A DNA stretch of 64,000 nt from an uncultured Haloferula sp. (lineage in GTDB: Bacteria > Verrucomicrobiota > Verrucomicrobiia > Verrucomicrobiales > Akkermansiaceae): contig CBFGTS010000002.1 of NCBI GenBank assembly GCA_965652295.1, forward strand, positions 128,001 through 192,000. Direction: 5' to 3'. The translations under genes were made by a program, and so were the position numbers. The notes under the pieces are model-generated. The model had not been told where the DNA came from. It ran no database searches and worked only from the letters and a program-made list of their open reading frames with translations. Positions 933 to 4,639 of this stretch are shown here, in pieces (within the stretch, counting starts at the first letter, position 1; each line of letters starts with the position of its first letter).

Positions 933-1568
933 CTACCCGCGGTTTCGAAACTTGATCGCGGCCTCGGTCCTGGAGCGCACGTGCAGCTTCACGTAGATCT
1001 TTTTGAGGTGCCACCGGACCGACTCCACGGAGACATTCAATCGGGCCGCCGCCTCTTTGTTGCTCAGACCGAAAGCGACCAGCTCCAGGACTTCCATTTC
1101 CCGGCGGGTTAGGGTTTCCAGTTCGGCACTCTGCTCCTTCTGTTCGCTGAAATAGCTCATGACCTTCATTGCGACCTCGCCGCTCATCGCTCCCCGACCT
1201 TCGTGGACATCCCGAATGGCGGAAACGACCTCCTCCGGCGCGGAGCGTTTCAACAGATAGCCACAGGCACCCGCGCGCAATGCTCCGAAGATGCGGATGG
1301 GATCCTCATACACCGTGACCATGATGATGAGAATCTCAGGCAGGTTTTCCTTCAGCTGGAGGACGCAGTCGATCCCGGAAAGACCGGGCAATTGAATATC
1401 CATCAATATCACTTCAGGCTTCAGTTTCGGAAGATACTTCAATGCCTCTTCGCCGGATCCACAGGAAGCCACGCACTCAAGATCGGACTCAAGGTCGATG
1501 ATGGCCGTCAAGGCGTCGCGTGTCGTCCTGCTGTCCTCCACCACTGCCACCCGGGTTTTTGCTTTCAT
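933..1568 (-). CDS. NarL/LuxR-family response regulator
   Basis: Receiver domain (VVED, ILMDIQLP, GYLLK) plus LuxR HTH (LTRREMEVLELVAFGLSNKEAA); ATGA overlap with the upstream kinase. Confidence 0.95.
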   Translation of the reverse strand: MKAKTRVAVVEDSRTTRDALTAIIDLESDLECVASCGSGEEALKYLPKLKPEVILMDIQLPGLSGIDCVLQLKENLPEILIIMVTVYEDPIRIFGALRAGACGYLLKRSAPEEVVSAIRDVHEGRGAMSGEVAMKVMSYFSEQKEQSAELETLTRREMEVLELVAFGLSNKEAAARLNVSVESVRWHLKKIYVKLHVRSRTEAAIKFRNRG

Positions 1569-4500
1569 CGTGCTTTCAGGGGAATGTAAAGACTCACCGT
1601 CGTGCCTTCGGAAATCACCGAATCGATCCTGCAGTCACCGCCCAAGGCCCGCATCCGCTCACGCATCCCCGTGAGTCCCTGATGTCCCGGAGAGGCGGGA
1701 TCGCCCATTTCAAAGCCCACTCCGTTGTCGGTGATCGAGACCACCACGAACTCCCCTTCGATCTGAATGGAGGCGTCGATCGCCGTCGCCTGCGAGTGGC
1801 GGACCACGTTGTTGAGGGATTCCTTGAAGGCGAGCAGCAGGGCGTGGCGGCGACGCGAACCAAGCTGCCCGTCCCGAACATTGTCGCCCTGACGGATGCT
1901 ACATTCGATCCCCGCGGGATTGAGCAGCCGCTGCGCCTGGAGCCAGAGATAACTCGCGGCATCATCGACGGAGTCGTAGCTCGGATTGATTGCCCACACG
2001 ATCTCATCGAGCCCTGAAACCAGATCCCTCGCCAAATCACGCAGAGTCCCGAGATAGGCATCCTTCTTTTCGCTCGCCACTTCATGACGCCCTAACAGCG
2101 AGCCCAGCATACCAATTTCGGTCAGCCCCGCGCCGAGTTCATCATGGAGATCCCGTGCCACTCGTGCCCTTTCTTCTTCCAACTTTCTCTGGGTTTCCAC
2201 CTGTTCCCGCTCGTGGATTTCAATCGCTAACTCGTTGGTACGACGCGCCACCAACCGGTGAAGCACCATCGCCCATGCCGCCACCAATCCGAGCCCGGCA
2301 AGCAAGGCGAGCGCGAGGATCGCGAGACGCCGGGAGTTCCACCACGGAGGCATCGCCAAGACCTCGATCCCGCCCGCATCCGCCAGCCTCAGCTCAAATT
2401 CGGAACTCTCCGCAGGACTCGATCCAAGCCCGGCGAAATAAACGCCCGCCAGTCTCACGCGGGAGTCGCGGGGCAGCAGATCTGATCCCAGCTCGGTCGC
2501 CAGCCCGGCTGCCAGAAACCGCAGGTCGCCCGCCTCCAGTTCCAATCTTCTTTCCCGCTGCTGGAGCGTGTCGCTCACCACTTTCGCCTCGACGGAAACC
2601 ATCTGCCCGTCCAGCTCAATTCCTCTTAACTCCGACGGTTCCACCCTGCGGGCCGCTGGCAGGCTGCCGCGTTTCTCCACCTTCACCGTAGCGCGAACCA
2701 GGACCGGCGAGATCGCCCCGAGACGAGGGAAACCCGCCGCATCGATCACATCACCCAACTCGGCCGGCAAAACTTCCGGACTGTCTAGGCGGAGCACGTT
2801 TTCGCCATCGGAAATGAGATGTAGATTTCCCCGGCTGGCCATGAGACGCCCGCGCAGCCGGACCCGTTTCAGCGCGGTCGATTTCGTCGTGAACCGCCAC
2901 AAGTCGGGAATCTCGATCCGCGGGCTTGCCTTGAAGTCCGCCGGCGCGGGCTCGACCACGGACAGCCCGGCATTTCCGAGGAAAAACTCGCCCAGGTGAA
3001 GCCGGTTGCCGCTGATGTCCCAATTCGGTGCGAACACCCCGCGCATCCGCACCCGGGCACCGATCATCGACCGACGGTTCGCCTCGCTTTGTAAGCCCTC
3101 CGGCAGCGGGTAAAGGTGAGCCTCCTTGATGGTCGCCACGCCTTCATACGTCAGCAGATCGACGCCTGCCTCCGTCGCGGCGATAATCACGCCCTCGATC
3201 TCCACGCGCTCTGCATCCAGCATGCCGTTGAGGATCTCCTCCCACGTCGGTCGTCGAGGCTCGGGCAGGGCACCGAAACCTAATAGAATCTCCTTTTCCG
3301 AAACGACGATCGGCGAGAAGTCTCCGCGCTTTGTCACGCCTTCGACCCGCCACCGTTCTCCCGGCACTGGAATCGGACTCAGGTTGGCATCGCCCCCGGC
3401 GAGCACGAAGATCCCTCCACTATCGTCCTGCAACACGAGGGAGCGGCTGTTGGCCATGGTCACTACTCCTTCCAAAACCACCGGATGGGCGCAGTCGGCA
3501 TCTTCGGGCTGGAGCTCGCGCACCTCGAACGCCCGCATCAGCGGGCCGCTTCGCGAATTGGCCGACCCTACTGGGGAAAACAAGGCAGAGGTGAGCGAAC
3601 AGATGCCTCCCGGATAATTCATTCCGGACACCCTCAGCCGGGATCCCACCCACTGGGCGGGATCCATGCCGCCTGACTCCAGCACACACACCTCCACCCG
3701 TGTAGAATCGACCAGCAGCTCCAGCCGCATCCCCTCCTTATCAGGGGCAGCATAGGTAACCGCCCCGCTTCGAGTCTCCCAACTGTATGGCTTTCTTTGC
3801 GCCGCTCCTTTCGACGCAGCTGGCGGATCGATCCGTTTCCACGCCGGAATCGATCGGCCGACGTAGACTTGCGCACCGTCGTCGCAGGTGAGCCGCAACT
3901 GGTGGATCCCCGGCTCCTCAACCAACATGACTCCCGAAAAGCGCAGCGCCACATCGTCGCGACCGGCATAGGGAGTTGCGTCGATCGTTGGAACTGTCCC
4001 TTCAGCTTCCGCACCGGTTTCTGGAATCTCCGTCACCGAGACGATCGCCGGAACGGTATATTTCTCGATATGCAATCCCTCCGTCTCCCCTTCCTGAGAA
4101 GGTCTGAACCACGACTTATCCGGAGATCTCCAACCCTGTCCGGAACGACGGATTTCAAGCTCCAGATTCGAGGTCGCCTGACCATTGAACCACTCCAACA
4201 AAAAGGGCTGGCTTCCTTTTTCGAGATACACCGCCCCCTCCTCGGTCAAGGGAGGGTGCCTCCCGTCCAGATCAATCACCGGCCCGAGTCCGCATTCGAT
4301 CACGCAGCCACGCTGGGAAAAGGAACAGAGTTTGAAGTCGAGTTGCACCCCAGCCCCCGGCGCGAGCCCGGCCCATGCCTCGTCGGGCAAGGTCAGCCGA
4401 AGAATTGCCGCCGAAGTCTCGTCCTCCACCGCCAGATGACCGCCGTTTCGATCCAGATCGAGGACTTTCGCCTGAATCGTCAGATCCAAGGGTGGTGTGC

Positions 4501-4639
4501 GCTGGTCCTTCACCATCGTCAGCAATGGGCCAAGCCGCGTCACCTCACCCCGCGAAGGCACCCATGGCAGACACAGTGCCAAGAAACAGATCCGCCCCAA
4601 CAACGAGCGGCGCAGGGTTTCGAAAGTTCGCAATCGCAA
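1565..4639 (-). CDS. Membrane sensor histidine kinase (HisKA_3/HATPase) with extracytoplasmic OB-fold-like repeats and a PA14-like domain
   Basis: Signal peptide; TM helix after PPWW; H-box RVARDLHDELGAGLT; KESLNNVVRHS, ITDNGVGF and GLTGMRER motifs; PA14 motifs ALRFSG..V...G...LRLTCDDG and VIDLDGRH. Confidence 0.92.
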   Translation of the reverse strand: MRLRTFETLRRSLLGRICFLALCLPWVPSRGEVTRLGPLLTMVKDQRTPPLDLTIQAKVLDLDRNGGHLAVEDETSAAILRLTLPDEAWAGLAPGAGVQLDFKLCSFSQRGCVIECGLGPVIDLDGRHPPLTEEGAVYLEKGSQPFLLEWFNGQATSNLELEIRRSGQGWRSPDKSWFRPSQEGETEGLHIEKYTVPAIVSVTEIPETGAEAEGTVPTIDATPYAGRDDVALRFSGVMLVEEPGIHQLRLTCDDGAQVYVGRSIPAWKRIDPPAASKGAAQRKPYSWETRSGAVTYAAPDKEGMRLELLVDSTRVEVCVLESGGMDPAQWVGSRLRVSGMNYPGGICSLTSALFSPVGSANSRSGPLMRAFEVRELQPEDADCAHPVVLEGVVTMANSRSLVLQDDSGGIFVLAGGDANLSPIPVPGERWRVEGVTKRGDFSPIVVSEKEILLGFGALPEPRRPTWEEILNGMLDAERVEIEGVIIAATEAGVDLLTYEGVATIKEAHLYPLPEGLQSEANRRSMIGARVRMRGVFAPNWDISGNRLHLGEFFLGNAGLSVVEPAPADFKASPRIEIPDLWRFTTKSTALKRVRLRGRLMASRGNLHLISDGENVLRLDSPEVLPAELGDVIDAAGFPRLGAISPVLVRATVKVEKRGSLPAARRVEPSELRGIELDGQMVSVEAKVVSDTLQQRERRLELEAGDLRFLAAGLATELGSDLLPRDSRVRLAGVYFAGLGSSPAESSEFELRLADAGGIEVLAMPPWWNSRRLAILALALLAGLGLVAAWAMVLHRLVARRTNELAIEIHEREQVETQRKLEEERARVARDLHDELGAGLTEIGMLGSLLGRHEVASEKKDAYLGTLRDLARDLVSGLDEIVWAINPSYDSVDDAASYLWLQAQRLLNPAGIECSIRQGDNVRDGQLGSRRRHALLLAFKESLNNVVRHSQATAIDASIQIEGEFVVVSITDNGVGFEMGDPASPGHQGLTGMRERMRALGGDCRIDSVISEGTTVSLYIPLKAR

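Follow-up and report, generated by a model that had tools for sequence, protein, structure and literature searches.

The window, a stretch of 64,000 nucleotides of DNA from an uncultured Haloferula sp., carries near its start the gene for a sensor histidine kinase of 1024 aa and, directly behind it, the gene for a NarL/LuxR-type response regulator. The overall architecture of the kinase consists of a likely signal peptide, a long ectodomain interrupted by a PA14-like module, a single transmembrane helix, and a cytoplasmic kinase core. The features are as follows, all on the minus strand.

1565..4639, minus strand: sensor histidine kinase gene, 1024 aa (Pfam HisKA_3 and HATPase_c above cut-off; 11 homologs)
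4547..4639, minus strand: likely signal peptide, residues 1–31 (basic start, then a short hydrophobic stretch; similar leaders in homologs)
4301..4546, minus strand: the part of predicted OB fold 1 that precedes the insert, residues 32–113 (model strands 51–63, 68–72, 77–81, and 97–110)
4091..4282, minus strand: PA14 C-terminal half, placed first, residues 120–183 (H128 at 4256–4258; W150-F151-N152, with N152 at 4184–4186)
4079..4102, minus strand: linker PSQEGETE, residues 180–187, between the canonical C- and N-termini
3857..4081, minus strand: PA14 N-terminal half, placed second, residues 187–261 (D253-D254 at 3878–3883; Pfam PA14 model positions 38–77)
3830..3844, minus strand: last strand of predicted OB fold 1, residues 266–270, where the modelled fold resumes after the insert
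2336..3787, minus strand: predicted OB folds 2–6, residues ~285–768 (repeat homology, model alignment, and Foldseek)
2261..2329, minus strand: single transmembrane helix, residues 771–793 (hydropathy; model helix 769–794)
1574..2173, minus strand: cytoplasmic HisKA_3 (823–887, with H832) and HATPase_c (933–1022) domains (Pfam)
933..1568, minus strand: NarL/LuxR-type response regulator (receiver and LuxR-type HTH), its start overlapping the kinase stop codon
2..907 (L129:17115-18908), minus strand: downstream gene, a 598-aa frame running past the window start, directly behind the regulator

The kinase ORF opens with a TTG start codon. The database gene call begins 41 codons downstream, a start with which the signal peptide would be lost. 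The 19-residue hydropathy exceeds 1.4 at one stretch of the protein only, namely the transmembrane helix. Both cytoplasmic domains score over their Pfam cut-offs (HisKA_3 30.8 bits, HATPase_c 40.3 bits), and residues H832, E940, N944, D971, G973, and G975 are invariant in all 11 aligned kinases. A similar regulator lies directly behind the kinase gene in 15 of the 19 homologous loci scanned. The nearest named relative of the kinase is a Haloferula sargassicola protein (56% over residues 40–370), and the promoter and terminator scans gave matches at chance level only.

Order of the PA14 halves

Positions 3857–4282 of the window encode exactly residues G261 to P120 of the kinase ORF (4639..1565, minus strand). 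The first-pass annotation had read this segment as a PA14 domain with its halves in reverse order, the C-terminal half at residues ~120–180 preceding the N-terminal half at ~188–261. The Pfam PA14 model (PF07691, curated cut-off 24 bits) matched residues 222–261 only, against model positions 38–77, with an E value of 0.0076 (16.5 bits) on the whole protein and 8.4e-5 (22.8 bits) on the cut-out module. Both scores are under the cut-off, which 9 of the 11 homologs pass, and the C-terminal half searched alone against this model gave no match. The proposed Pfam check therefore recovers the N-terminal half, below cut-off, and fails for the C-terminal half. We attribute the detection of just 40 residues in these kinases to the permutation of the domain.

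Profiles of the family recovered both halves. A profile of 10 permuted modules matched the PA14 domain of the sulfatase 9S8A in two pieces and in swapped order, profile positions 51–151 aligning to chain residues 504–605 (E 8.6e-9) and positions 20–67 to residues 632–680 (E 9.2e-5), and the same two-piece match was repeated with a 27-sequence profile. Additionally, half-profiles built from 21 canonical-order PA14s placed the C-terminal half at residues 121–181 (34 bits) and the N-terminal half at residues 187–261 (31 bits) of the window protein; the C-terminal segment reached 40.6 bits against 6.9 for the best shuffle (817 of 1000 shuffles gave a score). Since these canonical domains had been collected using the permuted profile, the match to the solved sulfatase is the more independent test. 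In profile–profile alignment, permuted columns 76–155 corresponded to canonical columns 1–79 (E 1e-32) and permuted columns 3–69 to canonical columns 74–140 (E 2e-21), the two blocks together covering 140 of the 149 canonical PA14 columns.

The profile matches, at residues 120–183 and 187–261, bear out the reverse order. The cut point lies in the turn after the DD strand, between ...LYIG and VVDNDG, which corresponds to the cut that the first-pass annotation had set between VYVG and PVID; the PSQEGETE linker at residues 180–187, whose length differs among homologs in the alignment, and the intact DD motif (D253-D254) are also as it described. The survey of homologous kinases that it proposed returned the C-then-N order in 11 of 11 proteins, twice in P0013. 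Among the 28 and 15 PDB sequences matched by the permuted profiles, none is solved with the swapped order, and phmmer with the single module found 0 matches in the PDB. An assembly or frame artefact was ruled out, the swapped order recurring in 80 distinct modules; two other colinear matches (G312 and G160) turned out to be tandem canonical PA14s. On this sequence evidence, the PA14 domain of the window kinase is almost certainly circularly permuted, with its C-terminal half ahead of its N-terminal half.

Candidate calcium site and predicted fold

The candidate calcium triad, D253-D254-N152, corresponds to the DD-N triad of calcium-dependent PA14 lectins (Flo5, Epa, MpPA14, and RsgI) and draws its residues from both halves. 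In a set of 80 modules with redundancy removed at 90%, D253 is conserved in 79, D254 in 75, H128 in 80, and N152 in 79. Part of this set had been selected on the W-F-N motif, which inflates the W-F-N counts and leaves the DD counts unaffected; W-F-N is also present in all homologs from searches that did not select on the motif. In the accessible portion of PMC6852018, the hydroxyl of Y129 in 6QDI stabilises a cis peptide and N131 binds Ca2+. Residues Y129-F130-N131 of 6QDI align to W150-F151-N152 of the window protein; accordingly, the cis-peptide-stabilising tyrosine of RsgI PA14 corresponds to a tryptophan in 80 of 80 modules (W150 in the window protein), and the same tryptophan occurs in five canonical-order PA14s of the metagenome set.

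Modelled alone (10 sequences), the module is predicted to fold as one beta-sandwich (pLDDT 81, pTM 0.80), and model residues 1–150 align as a whole to individual beta-sandwich domains (VIA, best Z 6.5). Solved PA14s scored lower, level with unrelated folds (Z 4.4 for 6QE7 and 4.6 for the K. marxianus glucosidase PA14), and Foldseek with the module model returned nothing at E<=0.001. Foldseek and the Z-score aligners returned same-direction ranges only; under this restriction a permutant would be expected to match weakly, and the low scores say nothing either way. According to the text available from PMC6852018, the canonical PA14 sheets comprise strands 1, 2, 4, 9, 6, 7 and strands 3, 10, 5, 8; by this order the two halves are interleaved, and neither would be able to fold by itself.

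Alternatively, the two halves might be leftovers of two tandem canonical PA14s that form no single working domain. The permuted profile is colinear with residues 80–230 of 6QDI, across the junction of a tandem pair, and likewise in 6QE7, and mean-field covariation between the halves over 80 sequences (effective 67) gave noise, as such remnants would allow. However, no extra flanking PA14 half stands beside the swapped pair in any homolog where both halves were detected, the calcium residues are kept in both halves, the module alone is modelled with a pTM of 0.80, and the canonical fold, as far as that source describes it, interweaves strands from both halves. A tandem origin is, moreover, the usual route to permutation and no argument against co-folding. 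The leftover explanation is hardly credible to us, and a single sandwich built from swapped halves is the predicted fold; neither of the two outcomes that the first-pass annotation had named as fatal, halves that do not assemble and homologs that retain tandem remnants, was seen.

The colinearity with a tandem junction also bears on the origin of the module. Tandem PA14s of canonical order are present in this phylum (L145 and L146), and together these findings make duplication with loss of the outer halves the simplest route: the outer halves of a tandem PA14 pair would have been lost, leaving new ends at a beta-hairpin that allowed the remaining unit to be inserted into a loop of an OB fold. 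A tree of N-terminal halves (30 of the 80 permuted modules and 24 canonical domains) gave no support for or against one origin. One of the tandem-bearing loci (L145:3093-6392) encodes a Ser/Thr protein kinase with tandem canonical PA14s, a second signalling use of PA14.

Predicted OB-fold host and spread of the module

The ectodomain comprises six repeats of alternating types, in which repeats 2, 4, and 6 match each other, as do repeats 3 and 5; the homology is weak for repeat 1. The full kinase model (pLDDT 75, pTM 0.42) has tandem-OB proteins as its top Foldseek matches (p204 HIN, CST, and bS1), and model residues 664–766, corresponding to repeat 6, superpose on solved OB folds with Z 11–12 and rmsd 2.0–2.5 over 84–97 residues. 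By repeat homology and the whole-model Foldseek matches, repeats 1–5 are likewise predicted to be OB folds; phmmer with repeats 2–6 found 0 matches in the PDB. In the model, the module enters repeat 1 after strand 4 and a short hairpin and before the last strand (266–270), and in the alignment homologs carry after the insert a G.LP.P motif, the closing motif of the odd repeats. The insertion had been placed in the first of three ectodomain repeats, which holds in refined form: each of the three repeats is a pair of predicted OB folds, and the insert splits the first fold of the first pair.

The permuted module recurs well beyond the window. A GTDB scan returned at least 77 loci, at least 23 of them with ectodomain repeats, and at least 55 other ORFs matching the kinase core only. 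Among the matches listed, 21 of 23 OB-repeat loci carry the permuted module; of the other two, one is cut by a contig end and one, labelled Akkermansia and with four repeats, is PA14-less. By record title, 19 of these 21 permuted loci belong to Verrucomicrobiota, and the remaining two, both metagenome-assembled, bear the labels Dongiaceae and Candidatus Binatia. A scan of metagenomes for a C-half motif, which presumes neither order nor host and whose counts include near-duplicates, yielded 62 loci: 49 permuted, 5 canonical, 6 with the C-half only seen, and 2 unrelated. An OB repeat stands ahead of the module in all 49 permuted loci, as it does wherever else both halves were seen swapped, and the kinase core follows in the same frame in 35. 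Other PA14 matches in the surveyed loci have canonical order wherever both halves were detected.

Within the genus, 14 of 35 genomes match the permuted profile at E<=1e-25, and the order is permuted in both of the two inspected. In 401 genomes of the phylum, with at most nine candidates scored per genome, the full permuted profile found 10 genes in 6 genomes, all of them members of the profile itself. Members from several classes or families of the phylum retain the insert together with its calcium residues. Three kinases (P0013, L167, and L191) have two permuted modules, each inside its own OB repeat, and in P0013 both inserts are preceded, at the same position, by a match to the repeat-3 profile; host and insert have thus been duplicated together. 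The branch leading to the window copy is long, and this copy has lost the W..LPDF motif that most relatives carry. In the Atlas, an unnamed Verrucomicrobiota cluster bears a PA14 label (0.93).

Several neighbouring observations concern unusual frames. A 258-residue frame (L207:1355-2128) contains a PA14 C-half with no N-half or host repeat detected and may be a frameshifted or diverged copy. A 1783-residue open frame (L081:3700-9048) has ~780 residues preceding the usual ectodomain, which may be non-coding because an opposite-strand ORF covers that part. The genome of the window holds 17 PA14 matches, seven of them in a single 2086-residue frame (G000 C15:8662-14919).

The host repeats define a large unnamed family whose ectodomains are predicted to consist of OB folds in tandem; many members are sensor kinases. 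A search with repeat pair 3–4 gave 175 matches in 55 of the 401 phylum genomes, often in several copies, against 6 of 401 for the permuted module with at most nine candidates scored per genome. When 10 loci were inspected for architecture, two genus members had the insert and eight had the repeats without it, some of these with three repeat pairs. OB-repeat sensors are much commoner without PA14, which makes the permuted PA14 an add-on to a larger family; the module therefore probably adds or narrows specificity and would not be the sole input.

These observations raise the possibility that the permutation is real and the OB folds are the sensor proper, PA14 serving as an accessory for glycan tethering or avidity with no part in kinase switching. 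PA14-less proteins dominate by the above count, four-OB kinases and six-OB forms without insert exist, and the insert occupies the repeat farthest from the membrane. Furthermore, a PA14-less paralog in the genome of the window (G000 C3:121970-124021; L130:9971-11983) is flanked by GH29, GH5, GH2, and GH3 genes, and L062 also adjoins glycoside hydrolases. The surroundings of this paralog support glycan sensing by the family, but favour sensing through the OB folds. On the other side, retention of the insert and its calcium residues across classes and families, together with their duplication along with the host, points to selection on binding, and ligand binding by the OB folds found no support in anything tested. 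We therefore regard an accessory role as a serious though unlikely alternative to a sensing role of the module.

Gene neighbourhood, proposed mechanism and known systems

The neighbouring genes give mixed indications of what is sensed. Glycoside hydrolases lie within ~6 kb in 6 of 19 homologous loci (GH78, GH51, GH53 twice, GH2, and GH97), compared with 3 of 14 random 12-kb windows drawn from this genome only; by this rough one-genome control there is no clear enrichment (Fisher p=0.70). For these neighbours, 103 of 116 picked ORFs were scanned, 13 short ones being dropped, and the short loci L056 and L067 were left out. Genes following the window's kinase–regulator pair encode a protein that belongs to no known family, a fibronectin-III protein, and a PEP-CTERM protein; a scan of 8 ORFs over the 13 kb beyond the regulator revealed no glycoside hydrolase. 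The first of these genes (2–907) has no Pfam, NCBIfam, or PDB match; its Atlas look-alikes are unnamed Verrucomicrobiota and Bacteroidota proteins, the nearest named being DUF3863/DUF3864 (0.85), which we treat as a lead only. It is a possible target of the regulator. Elsewhere, an Ig-like-domain protein of ~830–1130 aa occurs downstream of the regulator in 7 of 19 loci (L055, L058, L059, L061, L063, L064, and L069) and is a possible common target.

Next, we considered the ligand. In the available parts of PMC8092209 (MpPA14) and PMC6852018 (RsgI), Ca2+ bound by the DcisD motif holds sugar diols directly, and in the latter RsgI3/RsgI4 provide a precedent for PA14 as an extracellular glycan sensor. 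Some near canonical relatives of the module sit on sulfatases, a fucosidase, and GH5/GH42-type proteins. Three phosphodiesterase-type proteins (L155:1977-3620, L156:3416-5260, and L175:1899-3614) terminate in a PA14 of canonical order that shares the W-F-N-G loop; these domains are possible near relatives of the donor, and the tree did not place them.

Conceivably, the ligand of the module is calcium, another polyol or phosphate ester, or a partner protein instead of an environmental glycan. The attachment of the same W-F-N-G loop to phosphodiesterase-type enzymes fits this, as do a loop nearly uniform across a family whose neighbouring genes vary widely and the lack of clear hydrolase enrichment. 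Against it stand the direct hold of DcisD-bound Ca2+ on sugar diols in the portions of PMC8092209 and PMC6852018 at hand and the attachment of other near canonical relatives to sulfatases, a fucosidase, and GH5/GH42-type proteins, and we consider a non-glycan ligand quite improbable.

Taken together, our preferred reading is that the permuted PA14 binds an extracellular sugar through Ca2+ and modulates the kinase. The module would sit in the first of six predicted OB folds, likely in the periplasmic part of the kinase. D253-D254, second in the sequence, and N152, from the first half, would meet and hold Ca2+, by analogy with the clostridial RsgI PA14. A sugar diol would then bind this Ca2+, as in MpPA14 and RsgI PA14, and the resulting change would pass down the OB chain and the membrane helix, reach H832, and be relayed to the regulator, whose output would switch genes for glycan use. 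We give this chain as a whole a probability of roughly 0.58; the mapping of residues is observed, and the steps past it, including sugar sensing by the module, are inferred. The first-pass annotation had proposed a sugar-binding module repurposed as the ligand sensor of a NarL-type system. The NarL-type partner is present (933–1568), and the sensor step stays at plausible, given that the kinases are commoner without PA14, that a PA14-less paralog is flanked by hydrolase genes, and that hydrolases are not clearly above background.

Verrucomicrobiota rank among the major degraders of complex polysaccharides, and glycan binding by the module or the OB chain would make these kinases a directly testable candidate for how the phylum senses its substrates. 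A broader proposal, which we put forward tentatively, is that the first natural PA14 permutant acts as a plug-in glycan detector on undescribed tandem OB-fold receptors, widespread and expanded in Verrucomicrobiota, and provides a route for sensing substrates and controlling hydrolase genes. In any case, the locus presents a clean natural case of permutation and insertion in a widespread lectin fold; the likely tandem precursor of the permutant can be seen in solved structures. It also brings to light a broader, unnamed family of OB-repeat sensors, found in 55 of the 401 genomes of the phylum.

The literature searched, which leaves out most subscription papers, contains no description of circular permutation of PA14, of a permuted PA14 in histidine kinases or two-component sensors, or of OB-fold sensors and two-component control in Verrucomicrobiota; in the PA14 papers found, the term 'circular permutation' occurs only within a cited title on other CBMs. 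The first-pass annotation knew of no earlier account either. The permuted PA14 in OB-repeat kinases is a real, conserved and, within this literature, apparently undescribed reshuffling of a known lectin fold.

Comparison with known systems delimits what is new. The cytoplasmic HisKA_3 core and the NarL-type regulator are shared with UhpB, NarX/NarQ, DesK, and LiaS, whereas all NCBIfam equivalog scores of the window kinase are far under cut-off. Unlike known HisKA_3 kinases, it has an ectodomain of 730 residues with predicted tandem OB folds, a region where no Pfam or NCBIfam family exceeds its cut-off. Relative to canonical PA14 (PF07691; the 9S8A sulfatase and the MpPA14 lectin), both halves match by profile, the DD motif and loop Asn are kept, and a beta-sandwich is predicted, but the halves are reversed, with the cut at the hairpin after the DD strand, and a W replaces the Y that precedes the loop in the canonical lectins. 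Rigden et al. 2004 reportedly name signalling molecules among PA14 hosts in their title. Montanier et al. 2010 are said to have described circular permutation between two calcium-dependent CBM families (CBM36/CBM60); this case and the window module share natural permutation of a calcium-dependent carbohydrate-binding sandwich, but the CBMs belong to another fold family and occur on enzymes, not in a sensor kinase. In GH3 beta-glucosidases, as in the window kinase, PA14 is inserted into a loop of a host domain, but the accessible sections of PMC5104943 and PMC4444583 mention no internal PA14 permutation, and the 'permuted topology' in those of PMC5104943 refers to the order of whole GH3 domains. 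The closest parallel is clostridial RsgI3/RsgI4 (6QE7 and 6QDI), where, in the text available from PMC6852018, PA14 likewise lies outside the membrane on a transmembrane regulator and carries a DcisD-N calcium triad that maps residue for residue onto the window module. The RsgI PA14s are canonical, tandem, and terminal, with an anti-sigma output, whereas that of the window kinase is permuted, single, and inserted in a predicted OB fold, with a histidine kinase output.
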